Shown here: one piece after another, positions 31,601-62,517 of the stretch
Position numbering within the stretch: position 1 is the first letter of the stretch
How the letters are laid out: each line of letters begins with the position of its first letter
Origin: Yuukianura sp. NJ FZ-2021
Taxonomy: Eukaryota
Reading direction: 5' to 3'
Length of the DNA stretch: 64,000 nucleotides
NCBI GenBank assembly: GCA_046563655.1
Contig: CM102285.1
Span: 5,518,001-5,582,000, forward strand
Made by a program: the position numbers and the translations under genes
The notes under the pieces: generated by a model
Told to the model about the DNA's origin: nothing
Database searches by the model: none
What the model saw: the letters and a program-made list of their open reading frames with translations, nothing else

Positions 31601-34202
31601 GCCTTTTCAACTCGGCTAAGAAATTTTTGTTCTAGTTCTCCAACCCTTACAACGTTCATTTCAAGTATTTTAACCTAGCGTGCTAATTTCTGGAATGTTG
31701 TCGCTCAGTGGCACTACGCTGGTTTTCCGTCTCGTTTTGCCTTAGCTTAGTTGCTTGTATGTTCAGGGAGTACGCTTCAATTAAAGCTTAGTAAGGTGCT
31801 CAAGAATGACAAGTCTCGACAGCCTTTTCAACTCGGCTAAAACGTTCTTGTTCTAGTTCTCCAACCCTTACAACGTTCATTTCAAGTATTTTGAACCTAG
31901 CGTGCTAATTTCTGGAATGTTGTCGCTCAGTGGAACTACGCCGGTTTTCCGTCTCGTTTTGCCTTAGCTTAGTTGCTTGTATGTTCAGGGAGTACGCTTC
32001 AATTAAAGTTTATTAAGGTGCTCAAGAATGACAAGTCTCGACAGCCTTTTCAACTCGGCTAAAACGTTCTTGTTCTAGTTCTCCAACCCTTACAACGTTC
32101 GTTTCAAGTATTTTGAACCTAGCGTGCTAATTTCTGGAATATTGTTGCTTAGAGGAACTACGCTGGTTTTCCGTCTCGTTTTGCCTTAGCTTAGTTGCTT
32201 GTATGTTCAGGGAGTACGCTTCAATTAAAGCTTAGTAAGGTGCTCAAGTATGACAAGTTTCGACAGCCTTTTCAACTCGGCTAAGAAATTTTTGTTCTAG
32301 TTCTCCAACCCTTACAACGTTCATTTCAAGTATTTTGAACCTAGCGTGCTAATTTCTGGAATGTTGTCGCTCAGTGGAACTACGCTGGTTTTCCGTCTAG
32401 TTTTGCCTTAGCTTAGTTGCTTTTATGTTCAGCGCGTCCGCTTCAATTAAAGTTTATTAAGGTGCTCAAGTATGACAAGTCTCGACAGCCTTTTCAACTC
32501 GGCTAAGAAATTTTTGTTCTAGTTCTCCAACCCTTACAACGTTCATTTCAAGTATTTTGAACCTAGCGTGCTAATTTCAGCAATGTTGTCGTTCAGTGGA
32601 GCTGCGTTGGTTTTCCGTCTCGTTTTGCCTTAGCTTAGTTGCTTGTATGTTCAGCGGGTACGCCTCAATCAAAGTTTATTAAGGTGCTCAAGAATGACAA
32701 GTCTCGACAGCCTTTTCAACTCGGCTAAAACGTTCTTGTTCTAGTTCTCCAACACTTACAACGTTCGTTTCAAGTATTTTGAACCTAGCGTGCTAATTTC
32801 AGCAATGTTGTCGTTCAGTGGAACTGCGTTGGTTTTCCGTCTCGTTTTGCCTTAGCTTAGTTGCTTGTATGTTCAGCGGGTACGCCTCAATCAAAGTTTA
32901 TTAAGGTGCTCAAGAATGACAAGTCTCGACAGCCTTTTCAACTCGGCTAAGAAATTTTTGTTCTAGTTCTCCAACCCTTACAACGTTCATTTCAAGTATT
33001 TTAACCTAGCGTGCTAATTTCTGGAATGTTGTCGCTCAGTGGCACTACGCTGGTTTTCCGTCTCGTTTTGCCTTAGCTTAGTTGCTTGTATGTTCAGGGA
33101 GTACGCTTCAATTAAAGCTTAGTAAGGTGCTCAAGTATGACAAGTTTCGACAGCCTTTTCAACTCGGCTAAGAAATTTTTGTTCTAGTTCTCCAACCCTT
33201 ACAACGTTCATTTCAAGTATTTTGAACCTAGCGTGCTAATTTCTGGAATGTTGTCGCTCAGTGGAACTACGCTGGTTTTCCGTCTCGTTTTGCCTTAGTT
33301 TAGTTGCTTTTATGTTCAGCGCGTCCGCTTCAATTAAAGTTTATTAAGGTGCTCAAGTATGACAAGTCTCGACAGCCTTTTCAACTCGGCTAAGAAATTT
33401 TTGTTCTAGTTCTCCAACCCTTACAACGTTCATTTCAAGTATTTTGAACCTAGCGTGCTAATTTCTGGAATGTTGTCGCTCAGTGGAACTACGCTGGTTT
33501 TCCGTCTAGTTTTGCCTTAGCTTAGTTGCTTTTATGTTCAGCGCGTCCGCTTCAATTAAAGTTTATTAAGGTGCTCAAGTATGACAAGTCTCGACAGCCT
33601 TTTCAACTCGGCTAAGAAATTTTTGTTCTAGTTCTCCAACCCTTACAACGTTCATTTCAAGTATTTTGAACCTAGCGTGCTAATTTCAGCAATGTTGTCG
33701 TTCAGTGGAGCTGCGTTGGTTTTCCGTCTCGTTTTGCCTTAGCTTAGTTGCTTGTATGTTCAGCGGGTACGCCTCAATCAAAGTTTATTAAGGTGCTCAA
33801 GAATGACAAGTCTCGACAGCCTTTTCAACTCGGCTAAAACGTTCTTGTTCTAGTTCTCCAACACTTACAACGTTCGTTTCAAGTATTTTGAACCTAGCGT
33901 GCTAATTTCTGGAATGTTGTCGCTCAGTGGAACTACGCCGGTTTTCCGTCTCGTTTTGCCTTAGCTTAGTTGCTTGTATGTTCAGCGTGTACGCTTCAAT
34001 CAAAGTTTATTAAGGTGCTCAAGTATGACAAGCCTCGACAGCCTTCTCAACTCGGCTAAAACGTTCTTGTTCTAGTTCTCCAACCCTTACAACGTTCATT
34101 TCAAGTATTTTGAACCTAGCGTGCTAATTTCTGGAATATTGTTGCTTAGAGGAACTACGCTGGTTTTCCGTCTCGTTTTGCCTTAGCTTAGTTGCTTGTA
34201 TG
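13690..34202. repeat. 222-bp satellite DNA array, main block (~92 monomers)
   Basis: GAACCTAGCGTGCTAATTTC... recurs every 221-222 bp (e.g. 13706, 13928); no ORFs >=60 aa within the array. Confidence 0.98.
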
Positions 34203-34757
34203 TGAGGGGTTGCAACGCCCCGTCGAGCGGCACAAAGGCCACTCCGAATAAATGAGATGATGTGGGGCAGAGGTCACACGAGAGCTGTAAATCAATGCCT
34301 ATTTTATTAGAATAAATTGTGATACAGTTTACGGTCAGAATTAGGCCAAATATGAAGTGGATGTGTGGTGGGGCGTTGGTCCAGAGCAGGATCAACCAGG
34401 TATCTGGTCCAGTGGGGCTTGAGGTCACTCCGGTGGGGCAGTAGAGGATCCGGCGTGGTCCAAAATGTAAATCCAAGATGGAGGAGACGTGGAGAGAGAG
34501 ACGAGACAAGATCCGGGCAGAGTGACGAGTAGGGAGAGACTGTGATGTGGACAGGAGTGAACTGCAGTGACGATGACGAGACGAGCTGCATGTCCAAATG
34601 GATGATGCAACTTCCCGTGCATCCGATTGGTTGGTGAGGGGTTTTGGTGGTGAAGACGTGGAGTTGTTGTTGTGCTGCTGCTGGAAGGACGAAGGGGGAG
34701 AAGAGGGGAAAGGGAACCAAAAGTGGCTATAGTGGTTTGTGGGGAATAACCCCCACA
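34203..34757 (-). repeat. 3' LTR
   Basis: Direct repeat of 44706-45260; no differences seen by eye and ORF-track translations across both are identical. Confidence 0.95.
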
Positions 34758-34809
34758 GGTCCCCAACGACCTGGAGACGTCCCGGCGACATTTGAAGAAG
34801 ACGTGGGGG

Positions 34810-36036
34810 TTATTTTGGTGGAGCTGGAGGATCACGGCGTTTTGGGGAATTCTTCCTTGGCGGAGGTGGAGCATTGGCCGAGTTCAATGCCCACCACCGA
34901 GCACGTCTCTGCTGCCGATTCGGAGCTGGTGGATTTGGTGGGACAGGGGGAAAACGTCCTTGGACAGGAGCTGGGGGAGCTGAGGAAGCTGAAGCTGCTG
35001 GAGCTGAAACTACTGGAGCTGGAACTCCTGGAGCTGGGGTTAAATTTGAAGTTGGTGGGGAGTTGAAAGTGAAAGTAACCGAGGTTGCTGAATTTGGGAG
35101 AAGAGTGTAGTATGGGAAGTATCCAGGGGGAATTGATGAAAATGGGAACTGTGAAGTTGCAGAAGTGACAGGAACGGTAATGGAAGTTGAAGTGGACGGA
35201 ATTGGTGAATTTGAAGAAGTGGCTGGAGAAACTGGACGTGAATTTGGAGAAAGTGGCCGAATTTGGGGAGAAGCTGAGCGATTACGGGGTGGAGCTGGAC
35301 GAGCGTTATACGGAGAAGGCCGATTGGAACGAAATTGTGCTCGAACAGGAGGAACTGATTTTGAAGAAGAGCTGGGTCCAGGGTTTTGGGTGTTTTGAGG
35401 GGTTCTTGGGGACAACGAAACATTTGACATTTTGCGTGTCAAAGCTGTAGGGGAGCTGGATCGCGAACGACCAACTGGGGGAAGTTTTGGGGGTCCATTT
35501 GGAAACTGCAAATCCAGAAGCGAGGGAATCTTCGCAGATCCATGACGCTGAGCCTGTAGCTTGGATTTTGGGGCTGGGTCACGAGGACGACGAAACGTGG
35601 CAGAATCCTGGGACTTGGGGGGAACAACCACGACGACCGAAGCAAGTCTTGGGCGTGGCGCTGGAGGTGGAGCCGAAACCATGTCCTGGAGTGACTTTTG
35701 GGGGGAATTCGGTTGGAAGCTGCTAGAGCTTGGGGAAAACAACTGCCGATTGAGCTTTTTCGGGGATTTTGGAGGGGAAGCAGCAGCAGTGGGCATATCC
35801 CAGTCGTCATCCGGAATCGGTGCAATGGCGGGCGTAGAAATTGGAGCAGCAATGACGGTAGAAGACGCAGACGAAGAGGACGACGCAGACGAAGAGGATG
35901 AAGAAGACGGAGAAACAGCATTATTTTGAGGAGGAGAGTTCAAAAGGTCATCTTCTGCAGCCAAATCGATCACGGCGATTCCTTCAGAGGCATCATCTCC
36001 TTCGTCCATTATGTCATCATCGTGAGGGGGGTCCAT
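34810..36036 (-). CDS. ORF3 of the retrotransposon: 408-aa Pro/Ser-rich low-complexity protein of unknown function (not Env-like)
   Basis: Uninterrupted 1.2-kb ORF between pol stop and 3' LTR; ATG immediately preceded by branch-like TACTGAT, T-rich tract and TAG. Confidence 0.75.
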   Translation of the reverse strand: MDPPHDDDIMDEGDDASEGIAVIDLAAEDDLLNSPPQNNAVSPSSSSSSSASSSSSASSTVIAAPISTPAIAPIPDDDWDMPTAAASPPKSPKKLNRQLFSPSSSSFQPNSPQKSLQDMVSAPPPAPRPRLASVVVVVPPKSQDSATFRRPRDPAPKSKLQAQRHGSAKIPSLLDLQFPNGPPKLPPVGRSRSSSPTALTRKMSNVSLSPRTPQNTQNPGPSSSSKSVPPVRAQFRSNRPSPYNARPAPPRNRSASPQIRPLSPNSRPVSPATSSNSPIPSTSTSITVPVTSATSQFPFSSIPPGYFPYYTLLPNSATSVTFTFNSPPTSNLTPAPGVPAPVVSAPAASASSAPPAPVQGRFPPVPPNPPAPNRQQRRARWWALNSANAPPPPRKNSPKRRDPPAPPK

Positions 36037-36080
36037 CTAAAAATATATAAAAAGAACAGCATCAGTATTTAATTACTGAG

Positions 36081-39000
36081 TCAGCGCTTCTTTGGCTTTG
36101 CGAGGCGGGAAATGCAAGACAGAGCTTTGGTGTGAGCCGCGCGTTTCGTACGACTAGAAATCGGAAGTTTTACGCTGGCAGGGGCGCAAACTATGGGGAT
36201 TTTACTCGCAGCGGGATGCAGGGAATCCTGGGCGGGTAAAATTGGTGGAATTAGGATTTCTGGGTCACGGCTTTGATTTTGGTCATTTAAGTCAACATTA
36301 GGGGGGTCAGAATTTTGGTTGGACGCTACGGGAAGCGTAAGAGGGCCATTTTGCTCAGTTGGAATTGGCAATTTTGGTAAGTTAGAGGACAAATCAGGGT
36401 CAACAACTGGAGGGGGGACAAAATCGTTATCAGACGACTCAGAGGAACTACTGTCTGCATCAGACGTGTCATAAACACGCTGATTGTAGGGTTTAAGGCG
36501 CTGAACGTTCACGACAGTCTCGTGAGGCTGCCGAGGGGGAACCGAAGTAATTCGAACAGTGCCATTATGGAGTACGTCAATGACTTTGTAAGGGCCAATC
36601 CATTTCTTCGTAAATTTGCCGACACGACCTTTTTTCCGCTGAAAGTTCCTGAGCAGAACTTTCATACCAACAACGTAAGTCGGGAAACGGATCTGTAACT
36701 GGGCTCGAACTCTGAGAAGCTGCTGCTCACGGGACAACTCGTGGGCTAAGTTATTCGCAACAAATAATCGGTCCAGGGTATCATCAGGCTCTAAATATTG
36801 CTGGGGAAGGGGAAACAGCCTGTCAACCGGCAAAACCGGCTCCCTACCAAAGACCAGAAAATAAGGAGAAAAATTAGTGACCCGATGTACTGAACAATTA
36901 ATCGAAAATACCGCCCTGGGGAGATGTAGATCCCAATCCTTGTGGTTTTCACTTACGAATTTGGCGATTACTGACTTTACCGTGCCGTTATGTCTTTCAC
37001 AGACACCGTTGGACTTTGGGTTATAAGCAGTCGTGGATCTGTGCTCAATGGCATGGAGGGAAAGGAAATCTTCAAATTCGTCGGAAAGGAAAACCGTACC
37101 ACGGTCTGACAGAATGATTTTGGGAATTCCGTGGCGAAACAGGACATGTTTGTTAAGTACTTTGATCGCTTGAGCAGAATCTGCTGCGGGAACTGGCCAG
37201 GCTTCTACGTAACGGGTATGCAGATCGATTACTGTCAGAATGTACTTGTTCCGTCTTGCTGTGACGGGGAATGGGCCTAAGTAGTCTAGGGCAATGGTGT
37301 GGAATGGAATGGCGGGAACGTCAAGACCGGCGCTATTTGGCGGGAGAGCAAAATTCCGTCTATTATGGATCTGACACAAGTGGCACGACGTGACAAATTT
37401 CACCACATCTCGATACATCCGGGGCCAATAAAACCTGGATCGTAGAAGATGCCAAGACTTGTGTAAGCCGAGGTGGCTAAGGGAGTCGTTATGTACGGAT
37501 TCCATGGACGATTTTCTGAGGGACTTGGGGAGACAAAGACGCCAGAGATTGCCAAATTCCGAGTAGTTCATCCGGTACAAAATTCCATCTCGCAGACTGT
37601 ACTCTCGCAGTTTCTTGGGTTCGGGCAAATTATGGGGAGCACCAGTTTGTTCTGCTTTCAAATACTCAATCACAGGAAGCCATTCTGGCTCTTTAAGCTG
37701 GAGATCTTTCAGTTTTGCATCTCTAACTCTTCGTGGGGATTCAGGGGAAACCGCTAACGCCAAAAGATGATGTTCAATGGCCAAATGGTCTGTGTCAGAG
37801 GGGGCTGGGTCAACTGGGTTACGGGAAAGGGGATCAGCATCGGTGTGAACACGACCACTCTTGTGAACTACGGTAAAATCATAAGGTTGGAGGGCTAAAG
37901 ACCAACGGGAAATTTGGCCATAGGGGTCTTTAAATTTCAGCATGTCACAAAGGGAATGGTGGTCAGTGACAACTTTAAAATGACGGCCGTATAAATACGG
38001 TCGAAATTTCTCCACAGCCCAAACAAAAGCCTTCATTTCCAATTGGGGGGTTCCAAATTTGGATTCGGAGGGGGAAACCGCTCTAGAAGCATACGCTACC
38101 ACTCTCTCTTTTCCGTCCTGAATTTGGCAAAGGGTCGCTCCAAAACCGAGTCCAGACGCATCACAATGCACGGACGTTTCGGCTTCTTCATCGGGGAACG
38201 CAAGGACAGGGGGAGATGTTAATTTGTCTTTAAGCGTCTGAAACGCTGTTTCGGCTTCCGGGGTCCAATGGAACGGGGTACCACGCTTCCCAGCAACAAT
38301 AAGATGTAGCGGACGGGCAATTTCTGCAAAACCCTCGATAAATCGGCGATAGTAACTGCAAAGACCAATGAAGGAACGGACACCTCTAACAGTCGTGGGA
38401 ACGGGGAATTCACGAACTGCTTTTGTTTTGTTGGGGTCAACTGCAATTCCATCTCTGGAAACAATATGGCCAAGGAATTTTAACGAATCCTCGCCAAAGT
38501 TACACTTTTTGGGTTTAAGACTCAGACCAGCTCGTCTAAGGGCACAAAAAATTTGGGCTAAGTGATCCAAATGCTCTTCAAAAGTTCGGGAGTAGCAAAC
38601 CACATCGTCTAAATAAACGAGTGCTATGGACCACTTTAAACGACCTAAGACATTGTCAATTAGGCGTTGCCACGTCGCTGGAGCATTTGTTAGACCAAAG
38701 GGCATTACAACGAACTCATATTGTCCGTCGGGGGTAACAAAACTGGTCTTTTCTCGGTCCGCAGGCTCAACTTCAACCTGGTAATACGCTTGATCACAAT
38801 CCATGGAGGAAAAATACTTGGCGCCATTGAGTCTGTCGAGGGTATCATCAATTCGGGGAAGGGGGTAAGAATCTTTCCGAGTCACTGCGTTGACTTTACG
38901 AAAGTCAACACAAAACCGCCAACTTTCGTCGGGCTTTTTGACCAGAAGGACTGGGGAACACCAAGGACTATCGCTCGGAGTAATAGCATTGAGATTCAAA

Positions 39001-41135
39001 AGACGCTCGACTTGGTTTTGAATTTCCCTCCGCTCAGTAAATCCAGTTCTGTGGGGATGGGAAGCAATCGGTTTAGCAGAACCTGTGTCGATTTTGTGGG
39101 TGGTTAGGTGAGTACGGCCAAGGGTAGCAGGATCAAAATTGAAAACATCCAAATTAGCTACAAGAAAATCTTGCATAATTTGGCGCTGTTCAGGGGTTAG
39201 GGTATTTGAAATCTGGAACGCCTCGATCCTCTTTTGCAGTTTCAGTGTTGCTATTTCAGCGTCATCATTAACCGAAAGTCCTAAGATCTCGTGCGCTGGG
39301 AGGGAAGATTGGGAGGATTTAGGGCTAACATGGTCGAATTCATCAAGGTCACAGAGTACTGAAGACTCTGCGAAGGGTTCGAAGGTGCCAATAGAGACGT
39401 TTTGAAGAAGTTTCACAGGGCGGTCACTCAAATTCCACAAGAACGTAACTCCACTGCCATCTTTAAGCGTAGAAATGGAATTCCCAATGGCAATATGTTT
39501 TGCGTGTTGGAGCTCACGACGAGGGGAAACCAAAATATCTCCTGTGAAAGGTAAATCAGTTTTTACACTGACTCGCTTCATCGTTCTTGGGTTAATGAGG
39601 ATTGACCTGGCCAGTCTCAGGCACGGAGGGGGAGTGGAATTTTGAGATAAATTCGAATTGCTCACGAAGGACGCTTCGGAGTCAAGTAGGGTAGGGGAAT
39701 TTGAAGTATCTTGGGACTGAGATGAATTCAGAGCCATGTCAATAGCTAGAGTATTTTGATTTTTGGGAATGGCCGTACATTTGGGAGTGATCGACTCTGG
39801 TTCAGCTTCCGAAGACTTTGGAATACTGGGGCAATCAGAAACTTCTGCAGTTTCTGACAAAGTTAATTTGTTAAGGACAGGGACTTGGGATTTTGGAATA
39901 CAAACATACTCATTTCTGAGGTCTGTACACGGGAGTTCACCTATTACAAGGCGCTCATTCGCGGGATCCAAAAGAAAATGTTGGGAACGGAGGAAATCTG
40001 AGCCCAAAACGATCTCATTTGAAAGGTGCTGGAAAATGTAAAATGGGTATTGGAAGGAGACGCCAGCAATTGAGAAAGTGATCATTGTAGTTTGGGGGGA
40101 ACCACAACGAACGTAAGAACCAAAAGAAAGTTTGACACGAACAGGTTGAACATCAACCGCTTGGGAAACAATATTGGGGAACCTCCTTAGAAAATCAGGG
40201 TGGACACAACAAAGAGAAGCACCTGTATCACACAGGACTCGAAGAGTCGTAGAACCAAAGACAACATCGGTGTGGAAAGTAGAATGGGGGGTGGAGTCAA
40301 TTCCGGAAATGAACTTTGCAGCTGAGATTCCCGAAGGAAACTCGGAATCATGGCTTGGGGACTTAGGTGGGGAATCAAAATCGAAAGAAGTGGGATCTGG
40401 AACTTTGGAATTTGCAGCTGAGAACTCAGGGGTGGAATAATTTACCCAGTCAGCGACTCGGCTTACATTGGAGGGGCTAATGCCAAATTTGGAAGTTAGA
40501 GAAACGGCTAGTGGGTTTAGTTGAGTAGGGCCACACACAAATTCGGAAGGGCAAGGTTCAGAAGGGCCAACACAAACAGAAACAAACTTTGGTACTGCAG
40601 CAGTAGGTTGAGTAGGGGGAAGAACAGATGTAGTGGAAGTTGTAGTTGTAGGTCCCAGAAGGGAAGTAGGATTAGTAGCGGCGGAGTTACGAAGAGAAGT
40701 GGGGACTGTAGGGACTGCAGCGTCAGAACAAAAGTTTGGGAAAGTTGTAGTAGCCTCCCCAACGACCAAAGGTGAAATAGGGTGGGGGTTAGATTTTGGA
40801 CAAGTTCGGTGGTGGTCAAAAAGAGCTTGTAGTTTGGAAAGAAACTCTTCTGGAATAATGGGAATTTTAGAATTCTGCTTCCTGCCAAAAGCTGAACAAT
40901 TCTTGTGGGTTTGAAATTTAGGTTGTTTGATTTTTCGGGATTTGGGACGTGTGGGACAAACCCTGGGTGGGGCTTGTACCTTAATTTGAGAGACTTGATT
41001 GGGTGGTAATAGAAGCTGACGTCCCTGCAACGGCAGCTCTATTGGTTTTCCGGAGGTTTGGGAAGTACGGCTGATGCGATGTTTGTAAGAAGATCCGTCA
41101 TTGTAGAGAAAGCAGACATCATCGAAGGAACCCAT
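36081..41135 (-). CDS. pol: Pol polyprotein (protease, RT, RNase H, integrase)
   Basis: LCDTGAS protease; WRFCVDFRKVN, MPFGL, YLDD RT; CDASG RNase H; HHCC zinc finger, DYLGPF, SDRG, CERHN integrase core; WIGPY GPY/F motif; 1684 codons without stop. Confidence 0.97.
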   Translation of the reverse strand: MGSFDDVCFLYNDGSSYKHRISRTSQTSGKPIELPLQGRQLLLPPNQVSQIKVQAPPRVCPTRPKSRKIKQPKFQTHKNCSAFGRKQNSKIPIIPEEFLSKLQALFDHHRTCPKSNPHPISPLVVGEATTTFPNFCSDAAVPTVPTSLRNSAATNPTSLLGPTTTTSTTSVLPPTQPTAAVPKFVSVCVGPSEPCPSEFVCGPTQLNPLAVSLTSKFGISPSNVSRVADWVNYSTPEFSAANSKVPDPTSFDFDSPPKSPSHDSEFPSGISAAKFISGIDSTPHSTFHTDVVFGSTTLRVLCDTGASLCCVHPDFLRRFPNIVSQAVDVQPVRVKLSFGSYVRCGSPQTTMITFSIAGVSFQYPFYIFQHLSNEIVLGSDFLRSQHFLLDPANERLVIGELPCTDLRNEYVCIPKSQVPVLNKLTLSETAEVSDCPSIPKSSEAEPESITPKCTAIPKNQNTLAIDMALNSSQSQDTSNSPTLLDSEASFVSNSNLSQNSTPPPCLRLARSILINPRTMKRVSVKTDLPFTGDILVSPRRELQHAKHIAIGNSISTLKDGSGVTFLWNLSDRPVKLLQNVSIGTFEPFAESSVLCDLDEFDHVSPKSSQSSLPAHEILGLSVNDDAEIATLKLQKRIEAFQISNTLTPEQRQIMQDFLVANLDVFNFDPATLGRTHLTTHKIDTGSAKPIASHPHRTGFTERREIQNQVERLLNLNAITPSDSPWCSPVLLVKKPDESWRFCVDFRKVNAVTRKDSYPLPRIDDTLDRLNGAKYFSSMDCDQAYYQVEVEPADREKTSFVTPDGQYEFVVMPFGLTNAPATWQRLIDNVLGRLKWSIALVYLDDVVCYSRTFEEHLDHLAQIFCALRRAGLSLKPKKCNFGEDSLKFLGHIVSRDGIAVDPNKTKAVREFPVPTTVRGVRSFIGLCSYYRRFIEGFAEIARPLHLIVAGKRGTPFHWTPEAETAFQTLKDKLTSPPVLAFPDEEAETSVHCDASGLGFGATLCQIQDGKERVVAYASRAVSPSESKFGTPQLEMKAFVWAVEKFRPYLYGRHFKVVTDHHSLCDMLKFKDPYGQISRWSLALQPYDFTVVHKSGRVHTDADPLSRNPVDPAPSDTDHLAIEHHLLALAVSPESPRRVRDAKLKDLQLKEPEWLPVIEYLKAEQTGAPHNLPEPKKLREYSLRDGILYRMNYSEFGNLWRLCLPKSLRKSSMESVHNDSLSHLGLHKSWHLLRSRFYWPRMYRDVVKFVTSCHLCQIHNRRNFALPPNSAGLDVPAIPFHTIALDYLGPFPVTARRNKYILTVIDLHTRYVEAWPVPAADSAQAIKVLNKHVLFRHGIPKIILSDRGTVFLSDEFEDFLSLHAIEHRSTTAYNPKSNGVCERHNGTVKSVIAKFVSENHKDWDLHLPRAVFSINCSVHRVTNFSPYFLVFGREPVLPVDRLFPLPQQYLEPDDTLDRLFVANNLAHELSREQQLLRVRAQLQIRFPTYVVGMKVLLRNFQRKKGRVGKFTKKWIGPYKVIDVLHNGTVRITSVPPRQPHETVVNVQRLKPYNQRVYDTSDADSSSSESSDNDFVPPPVVDPDLSSNLPKLPIPTEQNGPLTLPVASNQNSDPPNVDLNDQNQSRDPEILIPPILPAQDSLHPAASKIPIVCAPASVKLPISSRTKRAAHTKALSCISRLAKPKKR

Positions 41136-42436
41136 TGGTTTTCCTGAGCTGGTGGTCCAGTTTGTGGATTTTGAAATGACTGCGGCTGATGTGGGCTGGT
41201 TTGTAGTGGTCTTGAATCAACGTTAGGAAAGGGACGTTGAACAGCTTGGCTATAACTAGCCAGCTGCTGGGGTTGTTGATTATTGGGATTGTTTCGGGGG
41301 CGCAGTGGTCTACAGTTGCGGGTCAAAGGGTCAATGCCTTGGCTCCACCACCATTTGTGACAGTATCGAACAATATGTCCAATATTGTTGCAGTAATCGC
41401 AAATTGGCTTTCCATCATCAGAACGACGATTCTGTTGTGGAGGGAAAGGCCGATCGGGCTGGGGAGCAGTTTGAACTGCTGGTTGGGTTTGAGCAGGAGG
41501 GCGTTGGTACTGCTGGACTTGGTAGGGAATAGTTGTAGGGAAATTAGCATTTGGAATGGCGGGAGCCATTTGAGTTTCCAGTCCACGTAGAGAAACCATC
41601 GGATCAGAATTGGGTTTAGAGCGGGTGTGAACATCAGCAACTCGTCTCAGGATCTTCTGGAATTCGGAAGGGGTCTGGATATTCTGCATGACAAATGCTT
41701 GTTCCAGCTTGTGTGGGAGACCACGAACTAATTGTTCAACCTTCCGGGATTCTGGCATCATGGGATCAAGTTTGGAAAGAATTTGGATTTTTTCAGCCAC
41801 ATACTGGTCAATGTTGTCTCCTATTTTGAACCGCAGAGCCTTGCTCTGGGCTTTGAAAACCTCCCGTCGCTCTTTAAGGGAAAAATGGGAAACAAATTCT
41901 TTTTCAAATTTGCTCCAAATGTTTTCTGCATCTGCGTAGGGAACTTGCAACTGCTCACGGAAATGGGGCCAAATAGAAACAAACCAGGCACTAGCAACAC
42001 CCGTCAACACTCTGTCAAAATGACTGAGCGCTCCGAATGCACCAAAGCCTGATCCGCTCAAGTCGTATTTGTATCGGGCCATGTATTCAGCAGGATCGCT
42101 CATTCCATCGTACTGTCTGATGTGTTTGAATATCTTGATGTCCTGCTTGCTTGGATCTGGTGGCGGGAAATTTCGAAAAATTTGGGGAATAGGAGCTTGT
42201 ACAGCTGCAGGGCTAACAATAGTACTTGCTGGGGTGGGGGGTGTAGGAACGAATTGGGCTTGTGTTGGGGCAAAATGAACTGCAGCAGGTTGACCTTGAG
42301 TTGACAAATTGAGAGTAGGAGGAAGAGTCTGGGTAGCAGTATCCATGGGAATTGTTGATTGGGATAAGAGCTGGTGAGTGGGGTGTCCGTCTTGTTGGGG
42401 TGTAGAGGCAAATGGTCTCGCAAAGTATGACAGCAT
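41039..42436 (-). CDS. gag: Gag
   Basis: Retrotransposon capsid-like region (LTGVASAWF...WSKFEKEFVSHF) and CDYCNNIGHIVRYC CCHC knuckle; overlaps pol in the -1 frame. Confidence 0.93.
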   Translation of the reverse strand: MLSYFARPFASTPQQDGHPTHQLLSQSTIPMDTATQTLPPTLNLSTQGQPAAVHFAPTQAQFVPTPPTPASTIVSPAAVQAPIPQIFRNFPPPDPSKQDIKIFKHIRQYDGMSDPAEYMARYKYDLSGSGFGAFGALSHFDRVLTGVASAWFVSIWPHFREQLQVPYADAENIWSKFEKEFVSHFSLKERREVFKAQSKALRFKIGDNIDQYVAEKIQILSKLDPMMPESRKVEQLVRGLPHKLEQAFVMQNIQTPSEFQKILRRVADVHTRSKPNSDPMVSLRGLETQMAPAIPNANFPTTIPYQVQQYQRPPAQTQPAVQTAPQPDRPFPPQQNRRSDDGKPICDYCNNIGHIVRYCHKWWWSQGIDPLTRNCRPLRPRNNPNNQQPQQLASYSQAVQRPFPNVDSRPLQTSPHQPQSFQNPQTGPPAQENQWVPSMMSAFSTMTDLLTNIASAVLPKPPENQ

Positions 42437-42448
42437 TTTTGAGAATTT

Positions 42449-42862
42449 TTACAAACGGCGTCTCGGATCAACACGGGGTTCGGTTTCAAACACTAACCAG
42501 CCTTGGGCATTGGCAAATGCTTTGAACAACCACCGATAAATGGGACCGAAGAAATCCCAGTGGTAGTAGAGGATTCGTACAATTAGGGCTAGGAAGTAGT
42601 AAGTCTCGGTTCCAATGAGAACCCGGAAAAAGTAACGATAAGTTCTCGGGGCTTGTCGTAGGTAGAAGACTGGGATAATGTGGAGGGCGATATAGTCAGA
42701 AACAACCGAAAATGTCGCTATTAGACAGGAATAAGTAATGTGGGAGAGGAATGTTGCGATGAGATATACAGTTTCAAGGACCAAAAGGATGAAGCAGATC
42801 CCAAAGAATGCTGCTAAGCCGAGAAACACGACTGTCTTTAGAAAGGACCAAAAAATTTGCAT
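42449..42862 (-). CDS. sORF-C: 137-aa hydrophobic, probably multi-pass membrane protein upstream of gag
   Basis: MQIFWSFLKTVVFLGLAAFFGICFILLVLETVYLIATFLS...YYFLALIVRILYY...basic tail RVDPRRRL; stop 12 nt before the gag ATG. Confidence 0.6.
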   Translation of the reverse strand: MQIFWSFLKTVVFLGLAAFFGICFILLVLETVYLIATFLSHITYSCLIATFSVVSDYIALHIIPVFYLRQAPRTYRYFFRVLIGTETYYFLALIVRILYYHWDFFGPIYRWLFKAFANAQGWLVFETEPRVDPRRRL

Positions 42863-42908
42863 TTGCAGGGACTTCAAAATAACTTAAATGCTTTTCAGCA
42901 CTTAAGCT

Positions 42909-43025
42909 TTACTCAAGAAAATGTAGGAGAAGGGATACCAAAAAGAAAACGACAATCCGTTGGACAATGACACCAATCGTAGCAATGACAACGATCAAGA
43001 CAATGTAGAGGAATGGGGAGTACAT
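42909..43025 (-). CDS. sORF-B: 38-aa hydrophobic peptide
   Basis: Hand translation MYSPFLYIVLIVVIATIGVIVQRIVVFFLVSLLLHFLE*; first ATG after a strong acceptor (GCTAAC...TTTTTCTAG|) at 43123. Confidence 0.45.
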   Translation of the reverse strand: MYSPFLYIVLIVVIATIGVIVQRIVVFFLVSLLLHFLE

Positions 43026-43232
43026 CGTCTGTTTTCTGGACTGGGCAGGGACTTTCTAGAAATACTTGAAATAAATGGAATTATTAAATATATAATGAAT
43101 ATGAATATTTATAACCTTAAATCTAGAAAAAGAAAGAAATGGGAATTGGAAAATAAATAGGGTATGTGGAGTTAGCTACTGTCTAGGGGCTAGGATTTCA
43201 AAAAGAAATCAAATTCCTCCAAAACAGAACTT

Positions 43233-43355
43233 TTAGAAAAAATAAAGAAACATTCGGACAAGAAGAACAAGAAAAACAAGTCTTACGCCAACCGATGCAA
43301 TGCCAAACCACATTAAGAAACCGACGAGCCAAAGAAACCACTCAATAATTTGCAT
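43233..43355 (-). CDS. sORF-A: 40-aa hydrophobic peptide
   Basis: Hand translation MQIIEWFLWLVGFLMWFGIASVGVRLVFLVLLVRMFLYFF*. Confidence 0.45.
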   Translation of the reverse strand: MQIIEWFLWLVGFLMWFGIASVGVRLVFLVLLVRMFLYFF

Positions 43356-44685
43356 TATTGAGCTTTATTTTCAGAAAAAGAACCGAAAAATTGGAATGGG
43401 AACTTCAATAGGGGAGGGCACGATGTAAAATCGCGTTATCAGAAGAATCGGCGAAGTCAGAGGATTAGGTAGTACCTACTCACACACTGACTAAAAGTAC
43501 ACCGACTTAGAAAGTTTTAAGTTTTTAGAATTTTGGGAAAATCGGGCAGGGGTTTGGGACGAAAAGCCGCTTTGAATTTTTGAAGTTTGGACCAAAATCT
43601 GAATTTAATTAATGTAAAGTTAGAACGTAACGTAATTTAGGAATTAGGAATAGTTTTTAGCCAAATTCTGGAAAATCCGACTATTCAGAGGAATGGGGGA
43701 TATCGCAGTTACGTGCGACTCACGAAATCAGATAAATCGGCTGACTCTGGGAATTAGGTTAGGTAGGGGGCAAACAAAAATCTGAATTTTGCTAAGTGTC
43801 TGAATTCAAGGAAAATTTGGGCAGAGTTCCGTTAAGGGGTAAGGAAAATGTGAATTTGGTAACGTTGTTCAATGGTGGGACTAGGTGGGGCAGGCTCAAT
43901 TCAAAAAAAATTTTTTGAAAACCGAAAAAATTTCAAACTACTTTAATTTTAGAAAAAATTTTGACAGGGGTTGGGTAGGAGTAGGCGTTTTTCGAATTTA
44001 GGTTATGTTTCAAAAATTTTCAGACCAAAATTTCAGAAGGGAGGGAAAGGGGAATAGCCTCTTGACCTTTGCAGGGAAGACTGGGGATACTTTAGTTTAG
44101 GTGGGGCGTTACGCTTTTGGAAAATGAATTTTAAATTTAGGAGGAAACGACTAAGTTTTTGAAAATTTGAAAAATTTTGAACAGGGGGACGTTAGGATTT
44201 TTTGAATTTGAAATTTACGCGGGGCTACTACTTTTCGTTAAAAGAAAACGCTCGCGCAGGGGGGGAAAAACCAAAAAGAAAGCGGCTGACCTTTGTTGAC
44301 CTTCCTCAATCGGTCAGTGACTGCACGGAGGAGGCAGAAGTGAAGAAAAGACGAGATGACGTGGAGGCAGGAAGTGATGAGTTGGAGCGTGGATTTGGAG
44401 CGTGGAGATGGAGAGTGGGTGTGACGTGGCGGTTGTGGCTTTCGTCAGCTCCTCGTGGGCTTTTTGGATGACGATGGCTCGTGGCTCGTGGCTACTGGCA
44501 GGTTGGTGGCTCGCTCAGATCTGAAAAAAATCGAGAAAGGATGAGTGATTTTTGAAACAATGATCTTTTTTCAAAAATTGCTATTTAAAAAAATTTTGAT
44601 TAGTTTTTGGAGAGGTCACGGGGGTCACAGGGCTCCTAGTGGCATGATTCACGTTCTGGTTGTGGTGAGGTCACGGTGGCTCGTT

Positions 44686-44703
44686 TCCCGGCTGAGCATC
44701 CCA
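44686..44703 (-). promoter_or_regulatory. Primer-binding site, tentatively tRNA-Pro-like
   Basis: TGGGATGCTCAGCCGGGA 2 nt inside the 5' LTR; imperfectly resembles the tRNA-Pro-type PBS TGGGGGCTC..CCGGGA. Confidence 0.5.
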
Positions 44704-44705
44704 CC

Positions 44706-45260
44706 TGAGGGGTTGCAACGCCCCGTCGAGCGGCACAAAGGCCACTCCGAATAAATGAGATGATGTGGGGCAGAGGTCACACGAGAGCTGTAAATCAATG
44801 CCTATTTTATTAGAATAAATTGTGATACAGTTTACGGTCAGAATTAGGCCAAATATGAAGTGGATGTGTGGTGGGGCGTTGGTCCAGAGCAGGATCAACC
44901 AGGTATCTGGTCCAGTGGGGCTTGAGGTCACTCCGGTGGGGCAGTAGAGGATCCGGCGTGGTCCAAAATGTAAATCCAAGATGGAGGAGACGTGGAGAGA
45001 GAGACGAGACAAGATCCGGGCAGAGTGACGAGTAGGGAGAGACTGTGATGTGGACAGGAGTGAACTGCAGTGACGATGACGAGACGAGCTGCATGTCCAA
45101 ATGGATGATGCAACTTCCCGTGCATCCGATTGGTTGGTGAGGGGTTTTGGTGGTGAAGACGTGGAGTTGTTGTTGTGCTGCTGCTGGAAGGACGAAGGGG
45201 GAGAAGAGGGGAAAGGGAACCAAAAGTGGCTATAGTGGTTTGTGGGGAATAACCCCCACA
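44706..45260 (-). repeat. 5' LTR
   Basis: TGTGGGGG...CCCCTCA on minus strand, direct repeat of 34203-34757. Confidence 0.95.
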
Positions 45261-46661
45261 TATGTTCAGGGAGTACGCTTCAATTAAAGCTTAGTAAGGT
45301 GCTCAAGTATGACAAGTTTCGACAGCCTTTTCAACTCGGCTAAGAAATTTTTGTTCTAGTTCTCCAACCCTTACAACGTTCATTTCAAGTATTTTGAACC
45401 TAGCGTGCTAATTTCTGGAATGTTGTCGCTCAGTGGAACTACGCTGGTTTTCCGTCTCGTTTTGCCTTAGCTTAGTTGCTTTTATGTTCAGCGCGTCCGC
45501 TTCAATTAAAGTTTATTAAGGTGCTCAAGTATGACAAGTCTCGACAGCCTTTTCAACTCGGCTAAGAAATTTTTGTTCTAGTTCTCCAACCCTTACAACG
45601 TTCATTTCAAATATTTTGAACCTAGCGTGCTAATTTCAGCAATGTTGTCGTTCAGTGGAACTGCGTTGGTTTTCCGTCTCGTTTTGCCTTAGCTTAGTTG
45701 CTTGTATGTTCAGCGGGTACGCCTCAATCAAAGTTTATTAAGGTGCTCAAGAATGACAAGTCTCGACAGCCTTTTCAACTCGGCTAAGAAATTTTTGTTC
45801 TAGTTCTCCAACCCTTACAACGTTCATTTCAAGTATTTTAACCTAGCGTGCTAATTTCTGGAATGTTGTCGCTCAGTGGCACTACGCTGGTTTTCCGTCT
45901 CGTTTTGCCTTAGCTTAGTTGCTTGTATGTTCAGCGCGTCCGCTTCAATTAAAGTTTATTAAGGTGCTCAGGTATGACAAGTCTCGACAGCCTTTTCAAC
46001 TCGGCTAAGAAATTTTTGTTCTAGTTCTCCAACCCTTACAACGTTCATTTCAAGTATTTTGAACCTAGCGTGCTAATTTCAGCAATGTTGTCGTTCAGTG
46101 GAACTGCGTTGGTTTTCCGTCTCGTTTTGCCTTAGCTTAGTTGCTTGTATGTTGAGCGGGTACGCCTCAATCAAAGTTTATTAAGGTGCTCAAGAATGAC
46201 AAGTCTCGACAGCCTTTTCAACTCGGCTAAGAAATTTTTGTTCTAGTTCTCCAACCCTTACAACGTTCATTTCAAGTATTTTGAACCTAGCGTGCTAATT
46301 TCAGCAATGTTGTCGTTCAGTGGAACTGCGTTGGTTTTCCGTCTCGTTTTGCCTTAGCTTAGTTGCTTGTATGTTGAGCGGGTACGCCTCAATCAAAGTT
46401 TATTAAGGTGCTCAAGAATGACAAGTCTCGACAGCCTTTTCAACTCGGCTAAGAAATTTTTGTTCTAGTTCTCCAACCCTTACAACGTTCATTTCAAGTA
46501 TTTTGAACCTAGCGTGCTAATTTCAGCAATGTTATCGTTCAGTGGAACTGCGTTGGTTTTCCGTCTCGTTTTGCCTTAGCTTAGTTGCTTGTATGTTCAG
46601 CGGGTACGCCTCAATCAAAGTTTATTAAGGTGCTCAAGAATGACAAGTCTCGACAGCCTTT

Positions 46662-46909
46662 TGTGGCGTTTGGGAAGAAACCCATTCCCACTCGCCACTG
46701 GATGAGGATTGCATGGAAGAGATAGCTGGGATAGCTGCCTTCCAATTGCTCCATCCTTCGAGAGGTTTGTAGAATGTGGCCTGGTAGCATAAGGGCAGTG
46801 CAGTCTCCCCGGATTGGAGAAAGACGTGGGTTCGAATCCCACTCGGTCACTTATTTTTTCTACACTCTCGTTCTTTGTCTCTCAAGCCATGTGACCCCTG
46901 AACGTCACA
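46662..46909 (+). mobile_element. 248-bp solo LTR (TRIM-like) containing a tRNA-like sequence
   Basis: TGTGGCGTT...AACGTCACA termini (8/9 inverted match), 4-bp TSD CTTT (46658-46661 / 46910-46913) restoring the satellite. Confidence 0.85.
46776..46850 (+). ncRNA. tRNA-like Pol III unit inside the solo LTR (probably not a functional tRNA)
   Basis: A-box-like TAGCATAAGGG, D-stem GCAT/GTGC, stem TCTCC/GGAGA with 7-nt loop, T-arm GTGGG-TTCGAAT-CCCAC (B box), bulged acceptor-like stem GTGGCC/GGTCAC, T6 run at 46854-46859. Confidence 0.75.
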
Positions 46910-47627
46910 CTTTTCAACTCGGCTAAGAAATTTTTGTTCTAGTTCTCCAACCCTTACAACGTTCATTTCAAGTATTTTGAACCTAGCGTGCTAATTTCAG
47001 GAATGCTGTCGCTCAGTGGAACTACGCTGGTTTTCCGTCTCGTTTTGCATTAGCTCAGTTGCTTGTATGTTCAGCGCGTCCGCTTCAATTAAAGTTTATT
47101 AAGGTGCTCAAGTATGACAAGTTTCGACAGCCTTTTCAACTCGGCTAAGAAATTTTTTGGGCGGATCTTATAGGTTTATGGTTACATTACTCAGAAATGG
47201 ATGGAAATGAAAGATTCGTGCTTCATTAGTGCATGTCAATGGTTACTAGTCGCTTTAACTTGACTTTGCGCGCATAAACTGAACAATCGCTGCGCTGGGA
47301 CGCTGCCTGTATACGCTGCGTCCCTCTTACATACTATACTAATACACGTACCCTCGTTGTACCAAAACGTTGTTGTTGTCCGTGCCGTTGATCTCCTCGT
47401 GTGTACTGCTGCGTAGTATGGAGCGAGGGATCTTGACACGATGGCTTCAAGTTGACCTCGGATTGGGGGTCGCCTGTCACGAGTCGTCAATGTAGAGTTG
47501 GCCCTTGTGCCAACTCTAAGGAGGATCTGGAAAGAACGTCTGGCCTCGTGTGAATCGGAAAAGGGCCTGATCTTTATTCTCTGAATAAAGATCTGAATCA
47601 AAAATAAGAAATAAAACTAAAAGCTAA

Positions 47628-54692: not shown

Positions 54693-57600
54693 TCATTTGC
54701 CTAGCGTTGGCTCGAAGGTTTCCAGTATTTTAGCGTTGAAGTTTTGTAGTTTTCCAAGAAAGGCAGCGTCCATTGCATTTGAGATGGTCCAGAGTATTGG
54801 CCACTGGTTTGGCGGGAGTTTTAATTGGCTTCTCAGGGGTTCTGTTAGCGGACAAGTCCAAAGTGCATGGTAGTATGAGAGTTGCTCGCCACAGAAACTG
54901 CAATTCTTTTCGGTAAACTGGCCAAAGTCAAGCCATTTCCGGTTGAGGTAGAGCTGGTTTGCGTTCAGCCTGATTTGAAGAATCGACGTCGTAAAATAGG
55001 TGGGGTAGCGTTTGGAGAATAGCTCTATCGCTGGAAATTTCTGGCAGATTTCGGCGTAGTGAGGGATGGATTTCGATAGCGCAGCTTTTCTTACATCTGA
55101 TTTTTGATAGAAGTTCCTAAATTTCTGTACCATGGTATGTTTCAAGGCTCTTGTCTCGGTCTCGGCTCCTCTACCATAGACTCCCTCTTGACCAATCTGG
55201 GCGAGAGCGGATCTAACGAGGGATGCTTTTCCACGTGATCTCGAAATTTGGAATTCTAGAGTTATAGTCGAGTTCCTGATGTAAGCACAAACATTTTGTT
55301 GGTAGTTTTAGTTGCGAACGCCAAAAAAAAAAATTCTACCTCAGTATTTGAACCCGCGTTCCCCGCCTCAAAGGACAAAAACCGCCCAGACGCTTTCTCA
55401 CTCGCCGCGCAAGAGAAATTATGGACACCTGGACTGAAAATTCCCCTTTTTGTCGTCGACACAATAACGACTTTTTTCGCGGGTGAAAATTAATTTTAAA
55501 TTTTTCATTTTCTCCTTCACTCTCACTTGAAACCACCCTGCTTTCTCCATGAGATCCTCTGAATTTGAAACTACGCGACGGCTTAGGAGAAGGTTTATTC
55601 GACGACTTTTAACTCGATGTTTTGATTTAAAATTGTCAGCCTAACTTCTACTTGCTCTAAAAAAAATTTGCTTGAATTTCGGTTGCCTTTTGAATTCCCC
55701 ATTGTTGCAGATTTTTTGGCCGGAGGATTTTGCCTGAGTCACGTGAAGCCACGAAATTTTGAAGCACAAACTTTTTAATTTGGCGTAGCTTTTCTCTTCT
55801 TGTTCCTCCTTCCAAAACTTGATTTCTCCAAAAGGGTAGACGAGATTTGGATGGTGAAGTGAAGCACATCCTTTACGTTTTAGTGTAGGTAGGCTGTAGT
55901 TAGGATGTAAGTCAACAAAATCCAGCATTCTTTTCTTTTCGTGTAAAGGGATTTCGTTGGCATCAATACTTTCATTGTCAGATTCAAAATTTTCATCCAT
56001 TTTTTCAAAAAAATGTTTAAAAACAAGGTTGTGGAACGTTTTTGAAATGACTATTGGGAGAAACTTTTGACTTTCCCTTTGTCTTGAGCTAGTAGTATCA
56101 AGTCCTCTTCTTCTTCAAAAACAATGCCATCAAGGAGCTGGAGGAAAGTTGAGTACAACTTGTCTTTGTCAGCAAAAGCGTCTGTACTTTCTCACATAGT
56201 GTTTAAATTATACTCCCCGAACTCATACTCAACAATTTTGACGAACTTTTTCGAAATTTCGATTGGATTTACGTCCATTTTTTGAAAAAAAAATGGAGTT
56301 TTTAAAATTAATGTTAGCTGTGAAAAAGTCGTTTTTGTGTCGACGACAAAAAGGGGAATTTTCAGTCCAGGTGTCCATAGTTTCTCTTGCGCGGCGAGTG
56401 AGAAAGCGCCTGGGCGTTTTTTGTCCTTTGAGGCGGGGGACGCGGGTTCAAATACTGGGGTAGAATTTTTAGAATTTTTTTTTTTTGCATTCGCAACTAA
56501 TACTACCACCGCAATGTTTGTGCTTACATCAGGAACTCGACTATAACTCTAAAATTCAAAATTTCGAGATCACGTGAAAAAGCATGCCTCGTAAGTTGGG
56601 CGCACCAACTGTACTTGGTGTCTGGGTGAACTGAGGTGATTTTACGCAGTTGGTAGTATGCGTTTCTTGTGAGGTCAGAACCCAGGTTGGTGTGGATTTT
56701 TGCATATAGGTACCAAGTTCTTTTGACGACTTCGTATTGCAGTGGTAGAGACTCGGTTTCCAATCTAACAAAGTACCTGGGAGTAGTAAGCGGTAGGTGG
56801 AGAAAACGTTTGAAGTACTTTTGTTGTGCCGTTTCTAAGGTGTCCGTGTATATATGGCCCCAGATTTCGCAGTTGTACAGTGTGGTTGATTTCACCAGTG
56901 ATTGTAGCAGCATCTTAATAGTCCATAGGTTAATGTACTTCTGTTTCTTCAGTATACTCAGGGTACACTCCTTGTGCTGAGGTTCCTTTCTCTGCGGCGT
57001 TCCTTGCTGCTTTTTGGAATGTGCCATTTGACTGGAATATAATGCCGAGGTACTTGTCCTCCGAAACGGTCTCTATCGGGGTTTCGTTCCAGAGAAAGTG
57101 GTCGTCTTTTCGAATTCTTCCTGAGCGACGGAAAGCTATTACTTTTGTCTTGGCCAGGTTGACACTGAGTCCTCTCGCTTTGAAGAAGTTGGAGGCGAGT
57201 TTGATTTTCTCTTGCAGCAATTCTTTAGATTGAGCAGTGATGACAAGGTCATCGGCGTACAGGATAATGTGAACAATTCGAGAACCTAGAGTATATCCTT
57301 TCAGTAGCGATGAAGAGAACTTGGAGACGAGGTCCTCAATAAACAGATTGAAGAGTGTGGGACTAGCAGACTCTCCTTGATGAACTCCTTTCATAATCTT
57401 GACCGGGTTTGTTAAGCCCTCACTGGTGTTAATTTGGGCAGTGGCGTTGTCGTGGAGAGACCTGAATACTTTTAGGAACTTACTGGAGATACCCAGGTTG
57501 CCCAGGACAGCCCACAACAGGCTATGATTTGGTGTGCCGAAGGCTTGAGACAAATCAACGAAGGCGACGTACAGTTCCTTTCTTCTTAGGAGTTGGCACT

Positions 57601-59291: not shown

Positions 59292-59445
59292 GTTGTTTAA
59301 AGTTAGTTCGCGGCAGGAGGATGTATTGAAATTTTGAGTTTTATTTAGAAGTGTATTGACGGGGCGGCCGTGTCGTCATTTATGTGCTGGGAAGGAGGGG
59401 CGTTGAGCGGGAGGAAATGATTTAGTAGCTGTTGAGCCAGATGAA

Positions 59446-60076
59446 TTAGGTACGCGGAGAAGACGACTTCCTTGCCCGTTTTGACGTGATTCCCAGTTCT
59501 TGTCTTTCCATTCTGGTTTCAATTGTGAGGTCTTCAGTGATAGAGTAAACATCTTTGTTTTGAATGAAAGACTTCCGCAGCTGGAGGACTTGCATGCGCT
59601 GTGGGTAGTTCGAAACGCGCACCTTAATTGGGCGTGGCTTGACTGAGGACGGGTTGAATTTCCCAATCCTGAAAGCGTCTTCTACATTGACTCGGACTTG
59701 GTAGTGGTTAAGGAAGTCGTTGGTAATGTTCGTTGTGTTCTCATTTGTAGCTTCTGGGAGTCCGTGGATCAGAACGTTGTTTCGTCTTAGTTCGTCAGTG
59801 AGTCGGGAGTTAAGTTTTTTCAGTTGATCGATTTCTTTTTGTTGCTGTTCAGTTTTGGTTTGCAGCTCTTCTATTTGTTCTTGGTATTTCTCGAGTTTGA
59901 GTTCGATTGAATCGCATCTCGTGTCAATCTTTGTTTCCATATTTCCAAACATTTTTGTTATTGCCTCCATCATAACATCGTTCGAGAAGTTTGATCTTTT
60001 CGAAGATGGTTCGACTCCAGCATTAGCATCCGATTCAGCAGCTCGTTTATTTCCCTTGTTTTGTGGGGTGAACGGT
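59446..60076 (-). pseudogene. LINE ORF1 (coiled coil plus RRM-like), N-terminally truncated
   Basis: Coiled-coil IEELQTKTEQQQKEIDQLKK, RRNNVLIHGLPE, RIGK..PRPIKV, ITEDLT motifs typical of L1-type ORF1. Confidence 0.8.
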
Positions 60077-62096: not shown

Positions 62097-62098
62097 TT

Positions 62099-62512: not shown

Positions 62513-62517
62513 GGTTT

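Follow-up and report, generated by a model that had tools for sequence, protein, structure and literature searches.

The window analysed here comprises 64,000 nucleotides of contig CM102285.1 (assembly GCA_046563655.1, deposited as Yuukianura sp. NJ FZ-2021; positions 5,518,001 to 5,582,000 of the forward strand), and all coordinates given below are those of the window unless otherwise indicated. An 11,058-bp long terminal repeat (LTR) retrotransposon of the Ty3/gypsy type occupies positions 34203-45260 on the minus strand. Its leader, the 2,269 nt between the 5′ LTR and gag, contains three ATG-initiated open reading frames (ORFs) of at least 25 aa on the sense strand, and no others; they are designated sORF-A, sORF-B and sORF-C. 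An earlier reading of the sequence (the original prediction) had described them as a cassette of small membrane-protein genes in a young, intact, env-less element. On the internal evidence presented below, it is more likely that this cassette is real than that it is not.

The two LTRs, of 555 bp each (5′ LTR, 44706-45260; 3′ LTR, 34203-34757; both minus strand), do not differ from each other at any position, have TG..CA termini and are bordered by a target duplication, TATG. In the 5′ LTR, AATAAA is found at LTR position 450, and no ATG occurs from LTR position 170 to the end. Pfam searches identified Retrotrans_gag in the 465-aa gag ORF (41039-42436, minus strand), as well as protease, reverse transcriptase (RT), RNase H and integrase in a 1,684-aa pol ORF, the open frame of which (36081-41216, minus strand) is −1 relative to that of gag. 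The LTR ends, the short target duplication, the presence of gag and the order protease-RT-RNase H-integrase are those of Ty3/gypsy elements (Metaviridae). With identical LTRs and with gag and pol intact, the element is indeed young and intact.

The three leader ORFs

The coordinates and sequences of the three hydrophobic ORFs, all of them on the minus strand, agreed in full with the original prediction. sORF-A (43233-43355) encodes 40 aa with a grand average of hydropathy (GRAVY) of 1.85, sORF-B (42909-43025) encodes 38 aa with a GRAVY of 2.12, and sORF-C (42449-42862) encodes 137 aa with a GRAVY of 0.78. The ORFs are separated by 207 nt (A to B) and 46 nt (B to C), and the stop codon of sORF-C was confirmed to lie 12 nt upstream of the gag ATG at 42436. 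sORF-A and sORF-B share one reading frame, and sORF-C shares that of gag, from which it is separated by TAA plus four codons (42437-42451). The A-B spacer (43026-43232, minus strand) is AT-rich, has indel variants in other copies of the element and contains the element's sole TATAAA (43108-43113, minus strand), a candidate internal promoter situated 88 nt upstream of the sORF-B start codon.

All three peptides become hydrophobic within their first three to five residues. sORF-A and sORF-B are hydrophobic over nearly their full lengths, with one Arg interruption each and one or two basic residues each. In sORF-C, a Kyte-Doolittle analysis with a 19-residue window revealed hydrophobic stretches at residues 1-43 (the length of two spans) and 45-66, and a weaker one at approximately 80-100. 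A basic loop, RQAPRTYRYFFR, follows the second of these stretches; YLRQAPRTYRYFFR is found after a hydrophobic segment, and the tail terminates in RVDPRRRL. Aromatic residues account for 32 of the 137 positions, and the C-terminal region is rich in them. The alternative frames of sORF-C contain seven and four stops. An AlphaFold2 model of sORF-C, computed without an alignment, consists of two long helices (pLDDT 75.6, pTM 0.39) and is uninformative on topology. TAA with a following A, as at the end of sORF-C, makes a strong stop; the frame shared with gag makes a C-Gag fusion, by readthrough or via a small in-frame intron, conceivable and unsupported.

Start codons in the leader

Eight ATGs are present on the sense strand of the leader, compared with 21.0 expected, and none of 2000 dinucleotide shuffles gave a count this low. 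A stretch of 1,289 nt (sense positions 617-1905 of the element; window 43356-44644, minus strand) lacks ATG altogether, against an expectation of 8.8 (0/2000), and stops precisely at the start codon of sORF-A. Over element positions 617-2824, six ATGs were found and 20.1 expected (0/2000); from LTR position 170 to sORF-A, the corresponding values are 2 and 14.5 (0/500), so that the shortage of ATGs already starts within the LTR. The leader shows no depletion of antisense CAT or of the other five permutations of A, T and G, and ATG itself is not depleted in the control regions gag (21 versus 22.9 expected), pol (55 versus 62.8) and the region of ORF3, which follows pol (18 versus 11.4).

Two of the leader ATGs open mini-upstream ORFs (mini-uORFs), one of 16 codons that starts 7 nt past the 5′ LTR (44649-44699, minus strand) and one of six codons (44625-44645, minus strand). 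Three of the six ATGs that lie between position 617 and gag start A, B and C; two others are internal Met codons of sORF-A, both in frame, and the remaining one opens a 5-codon ORF situated inside sORF-C. Neither sORF-B nor sORF-C has an internal Met. None of the starts has G at +4. sORF-A has A at −3 and C at +4, and sORF-B has A at −3 and T at +4; the contexts of sORF-C (C at both positions) and of the 5-codon ORF are weak and also lack a purine at −3. Moderate and weak start contexts permit leaky scanning, according to a review (PMC5902531), and the sequence features of leaky scanning as found in rice tungro bacilliform virus (RTBV) and the badnaviruses, namely few internal AUGs and sub-optimal start contexts, are both present here.

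Two of the metagenomic relatives described below provide a comparison. In one (L005), a 795-nt ATG-free run stops precisely at the gag ATG; this suggests that the first translated ORF is the one at which an AUG-free run ends, and in the present element that ORF would be sORF-A and not gag. In the other (L002), seven ATGs, versus approximately 25 expected, lie 5′ of the first long ORF. AUG-cleared leaders may be common in this group of elements. The single AATAAA outside the LTRs (43364-43369, minus strand) is located 14 nt upstream of the sORF-A start.

Comparison with shuffled sequences

The sense strand of the leader is T-rich, and the original prediction had cautioned that such a composition favours hydrophobic codons. 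When the local sequence was shuffled, the frame of sORF-C remained open in just 19 of 5000 trials, and the observed GRAVY was attained 12 times in 5000 for sORF-B and 202 times in 5000 for sORF-C. The outcome of the shuffles was nevertheless mixed: sORF-A is unremarkable by itself, and it is the hydrophobicity of sORF-B and the length of sORF-C that stand out. The caution regarding composition thus holds for sORF-A taken by itself, and not for the hydrophobicity of sORF-B or the length of sORF-C.

The distribution of T among codon positions was also determined. T occupies position 2 in 27 of the 40 codons of sORF-A (p=0.007), 26 of the 38 of sORF-B (p=0.0006) and 60 of the 137 of sORF-C (p=0.015); for the three ORFs pooled, the enrichment at position 2 relative to positions 1 and 3 has p=3e-6. 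No phase effect for T was detected in the ATG-free stretch of the leader, which served as control (p=0.46). A phase-specific excess of T is the pattern expected from the coding of hydrophobic residues, unlike that from a uniform composition.

It had been noted previously that A and C both begin with MQI. The similarity proved to be larger than that: over residues 2-14, A and C agree at 7 of 13 positions, or at 8 of 14 if the first Met is counted (MQI...FL..V.FL). No anchored shuffle out of 20000 produced such a match, and a match of that size anywhere was produced by 13 of 300. Three of the shared residues are encoded by different codons, and the two 5′ ends can be aligned as DNA, too (5/1000). 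Because A and C have this N-terminal motif in common, it is probable, judging from the sequences, that the cassette arose within the element. The resemblance that had been claimed between A and B was not significant, as its score was attained by 150 of 2000 shuffles.

Relatives and other copies of the element

The RT-integrase region of Pol matched thousands of gypsy proteins, none of them above approximately 52% identity. The best matches, at approximately 50-52%, are unnamed or derive from a pseudoscorpion, ticks and others, and those that are named cite 17.6/K02A2.6-like proteins, not 412. No close Pol relatives were found in viral contigs or in prokaryotic genome contigs. A metagenome scan identified at least 79 loci with no more than 48% Pol identity, a set that does not include the protein relatives at approximately 50-52%. 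Gag is hardly detectable in these 79 loci, with a best E value of 1.5e-6. An Rfam search of 42300-45300 at E≤1 gave no matches.

Four public DNA runs contain the element; three are from one sample, and the fourth has a different organism label and comes from a different study. The contigs from these runs reveal a multi-copy element, with 386 substitutions, 110 indels and subfamilies that are up to more than 10% diverged. One record with the second organism label (X4 record 25) includes gag and the entire sORF-C, with 46 substitutions (2.4%) and no gaps, and another contig is approximately 10% diverged over 42326-42604, with two gaps. The 12 best-supported of the 110 indels are all outside A, B and C; one of these is located 2 nt past the sORF-A stop codon, and another, at 43103 in the A-B spacer, is an insertion of 6 nt. 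The avoidance of the ORFs, which make up 29% of the leader, by the five indels in the leader is not significant. Deletion variants of 218 nt (43937-44156) and 66 nt (44516-44583) were also observed in the ATG-free part of the leader.

Comparison with known systems

The published background given in the original prediction was confirmed. Small ORFs before gag occur in the 412/mdg1 lineage (10.1101/2020.09.24.311225), and one of them, sORF2, is a single-pass, plasma-membrane, FAST-like protein that is required for Env-independent transfer from soma to oocyte (Voichek et al. 2025, 10.1101/2025.03.14.642691). In the same preprint, sORF2-like ORFs are listed from Diptera, Lepidoptera and Coleoptera, 105 in total, and sORF2 is described as conserved across drosophilids in a 2026 PNAS paper. 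The screen for sORF2/FAST-like proteins is described in the preprint as demanding 60-210 aa, one transmembrane segment with the N terminus outside and the C terminus inside, an ectodomain of 10-50 aa bearing MGxxxS/T, and a cytoplasmic tail of less than 150 aa (Voichek et al. 2025).

A, B and C are on the same strand as gag-pol and inside the element, as in that screen. sORF-A (40 aa) and sORF-B (38 aa) are shorter than 60 aa, and sORF-C (137 aa) alone falls within the length range. sORF-C has several hydrophobic segments rather than one, and A and B are hydrophobic almost throughout. An MGxxxS/T start was not found among the sense-strand ORFs of 30-210 aa in the whole element. Membership of the sORF2/FAST-like family was accordingly rejected for A, B, C and every other sense ORF, and the FAST-like reading of the original prediction fails in so far as it meant such membership.

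Likenesses of a broader kind are apparent. As in the MDG1 group (412, mdg1, Stalker, Blood), an Env-less Ty3/gypsy element carries small sense ORFs ahead of gag, in the region that follows the 5′ LTR. In 412, these are carried on unspliced full-length RNA, according to the source, and the same may be true here. As with sORF2, at least one product is predicted to be membrane-embedded, and in sORF-C a hydrophobic segment is followed by a Tyr and then by a basic stretch. There are also differences. There are three ORFs here and two in the MDG1 group as described, and none of the three resembles the sORF1 of approximately 110 aa described there as soluble and nuclear. By its published description, sORF2 differs from the present ORFs, which have no N-myristoylation motif, no ectodomain of 10-50 aa and no single-pass architecture. 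A poly(A) site is described between the sORFs of 412 (Voichek et al. 2025, 10.1101/2025.03.14.642691).

The host also appears to differ. A BTB/POZ exon in the same window (1757-2224, minus strand) shows 87-92% identity with chinmo/Broad-like zinc-finger proteins from the springtails Allacma, Orchesella and Folsomia, and because these are its best matches, the host of the element is probably a collembolan and not a fly. The 412/mdg1 trait of small ORFs before gag is thus found here with a host that does not appear dipteran, and outside the three orders from which sORF2-like ORFs are listed in the preprint. Given this host and the names of the best Pol matches, an affiliation with the 412/mdg1 lineage is unsupported.

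The FAST proteins of reoviruses offer a further comparison. Here too, small membrane proteins would be associated with a non-enveloped or Env-less element, and sORF-C has basic and aromatic, or possibly amphipathic, stretches after its hydrophobic segments. FAST proteins, however, are described as single-pass proteins of 80-200 aa, with the N terminus outside and the C terminus inside and with an acylated or hydrophobic ectodomain, and A, B and C fit none of this.

The nearest precedent is provided by RTBV and the badnaviruses, in which ORFs I and II are located 5′ of the polyprotein ORF in an AUG-cleared region of approximately 900 nt and are expressed by leaky scanning, according to a review (Pooggin & Ryabova 2018, PMC5902531). 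The likeness is that of a reverse-transcribing element with accessory ORFs upstream on one RNA, a region cleared of AUGs and sub-optimal starts. These viruses, in contrast, are described as plant pararetroviruses in which ORF I is reached by shunting over an AUG-rich, structured leader, whereas the leader here is AUG-poor; the proteins are unrelated to those of RTBV and the badnaviruses, and sORF-A retains two in-frame internal AUGs.

In the Glyco-Gag of murine leukaemia virus, a membrane-anchoring segment lies directly upstream of, and in frame with, gag. sORF-C is likewise hydrophobic, directly 5′ of gag and in the same frame, but it is parted from gag by TAA and a following A, so that the two could be fused only by readthrough or splicing. 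In the literature searched, which did not extend to the supplementary candidate lists of the preprint, no description was found, outside the work on MDG1 and sORF2, of hydrophobic ORFs before gag that have several segments or approximately 40 aa, nor of such ORFs in springtail elements.

Possible expression of the cassette and alternatives

The reading that is tentatively favoured, and that we consider possible rather than probable, is that A, B and C are translated upstream cistrons of the full-length RNA, encode lineage-specific small membrane proteins and are reached by leaky scanning or reinitiation. The AUG-cleared 5′ region of approximately 1.7 kb would hand scanning ribosomes to sORF-A. 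Some would initiate there and others would go on to B and C, owing to the shortness of A and B (40 and 38 codons) and to their sub-optimal contexts. The weak start of sORF-C, together with the near-lack of AUGs inside it, would let the remaining ribosomes reach gag. The products would be two integral-membrane peptides of approximately 40 aa, from A and B, and a protein of 137 aa from C, with three or four hydrophobic segments and with both a loop and a tail that are basic. These peptides, at least those of B and C, would be under sequence constraint.

The case that the ORFs are real is strengthened by the start-codon-free leader, the excess of T at codon position 2 and the N terminus shared by A and C. 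What the data show is the ORFs themselves, the distribution of AUGs, the codon-phase signal and the A/C similarity; that A, B and C are translated, and that their products enter membranes and have a function, is inferred. By analogy with the systems discussed above, the products might act at host membranes, in particle assembly, as a pore or in passage from cell to cell; the fusion, pore or budding role named in the original prediction can be no more than surmised. A broad analogy to sORF2 or to viroporins would be more fitting than a place in the FAST-like family.

A number of results weigh against this reading. When the leader was shuffled in 150-nt blocks, an ORF of at least 137 aa appeared in 96 of 3000 trials (3.2%), and at least three hydrophobic ORFs of 38 aa or more appeared in 80 of 3000 (2.7%). 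In the local shuffles, the frames of A and B remained open in 1067 (21%) and 1561 (31%) of 5000 trials, so that their lengths are ordinary, and the GRAVY of sORF-A was attained in 612 of 5000, within what local composition provides. The anchored test of the A/C similarity was devised after the data had been seen and is supportive only. A 137-codon ORF that ends 12 nt 5′ of gag would be expected to exact a cost in gag translation, and the AATAAA before sORF-A could terminate some transcripts ahead of the cassette.

The searches for homologues count on the same side. Pfam gave no match for sORF-A, sORF-B or sORF-C. For sORF-C, no homologue was found at E≤10 in a word-indexed search, no match was present among 1.84 billion representatives, and the ESM Atlas yielded no usable match. 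A tblastn search of the 79 metagenomic loci gave no match for sORF-B or sORF-C and a best E value of 0.99 for sORF-A. Eleven of the 79 loci, picked by identity and upstream length, were inspected 5′ of gag, and none has a comparable cassette; locus L047 has one hydrophobic ORF of 63 aa, 1.7 kb 5′ of gag. The absence of the sORFs at 48% identity or less neither supports nor refutes their conservation, because these relatives are too distant.

The best-surviving alternative, although a rather unlikely one, is that A, B and C serve purely as regulatory uORFs. Retention of their AUGs would meter the flow of ribosomes to gag, by attenuation or delayed reinitiation, the sequences of the peptides would be irrelevant, and their hydrophobicity would be a by-product of the T-rich strand. 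An AUG-cleared leader with a few retained AUGs fits such translational control equally well, the lengths of A and B are typical of uORFs, and the spacings of 207, 46 and 12 nt recall reinitiation designs; the hydrophobicity of sORF-A, within the range of local composition, and the lack of homologues are also in keeping with it. A uORF of 137 codons, on the other hand, is atypical, and the frame of sORF-C seldom survived local shuffling. Nor would regulation alone account for a T enrichment that, in A, B and C alike, is confined to codon position 2, for a GRAVY in sORF-B beyond that attributable to composition, or for an A/C N-terminal motif that is encoded in part by different codons.

It is also unlikely that the ORFs are untranslated chance frames in a T-rich, G-poor leader, with gag being reached via an internal promoter, splicing or internal entry. 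The frequencies obtained with block-shuffled leaders, the lack of homologues and the absence of the cassette from the distant relatives inspected are compatible with this explanation, and the sole TATAAA, lying between A and B, makes an internal start conceivable. If the region were bypassed, however, there would be no need for selection against ATGs in positions 617-2824, where they are depleted to six. The codon-phase enrichment of T, the A/C N-terminal identity and the in-frame position of both internal ATGs of sORF-A likewise argue against chance.

More ambitious than the tentatively favoured reading, and improbable, is the proposal that a springtail element has derived from its own leader a three-peptide, non-FAST membrane module, which would be expressed by RTBV-like leaky scanning, would serve Env-independent assembly or soma-to-germline passage and would represent a second, independent solution outside insects. 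Very improbable is the idea that A, B and C are decayed pieces of one older and larger membrane-protein gene, captured or evolved before gag and since interrupted by stops and frameshifts. The common frame of A and B, the frame that C shares with gag, the hydrophobicity of all three and the short spacers would fit this idea, but this copy, with identical LTRs and intact gag and pol, is undecayed, the A-B spacer, with its indel variants, is of low complexity and AT-rich and is not degraded coding sequence, every piece opens with AUG in an otherwise AUG-cleared region, and the 1.84 billion representatives contained no homologue of any larger protein.

Env-independent spread of a retrotransposon by means of a small membrane protein is a recent finding, confined so far to single-pass, myristoylated sORF2/FAST-like proteins in insects. 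If the cassette is functional, Env-less gypsy elements would appear to invent membrane accessory genes repeatedly and in varied forms, and such invention would extend to a lineage of basal hexapods. Four cistrons would then be expressed from one RNA of an animal LTR element, by way of an AUG-cleared leader and leaky scanning or reinitiation, a design documented so far mainly in plant pararetroviruses. An AUG-free leader that ends at the first small ORF could, moreover, be used to screen other retroelements for translated accessory ORFs, cheaply and without alignment.

Other features of the element and the window

A 408-aa Ser/Pro-rich ORF, ORF3 (34810-36036, minus strand), starts 45 nt 3′ of the pol stop codon and ends just short of the 3′ LTR. 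Pfam gave no match for it, and inspection by eye revealed no hydrophobic segment in it; it is not an Env, and its length is unlikely to be that of a chance open frame. The description of the element as env-less is therefore correct in that no ORF with a transmembrane segment lies 3′ of pol, and incomplete in that ORF3 does follow pol.

The element has inserted into a tandem satellite of 222 bp, at least 11 copies of which are in view (33000-34187 and 45171-47000). ARAGORN identified a tRNA-Ser(GGA)-like sequence at 46776-46851, close to the edge of the satellite. A non-LTR element (a long interspersed nuclear element, or LINE) at 54693-60084 (minus strand) encodes an endonuclease and an RT in addition to a coiled-coil ORF1, and is split by frame breaks. 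Near it, at 62070-62739 (minus strand), lies an integrase fragment of a different LTR element.

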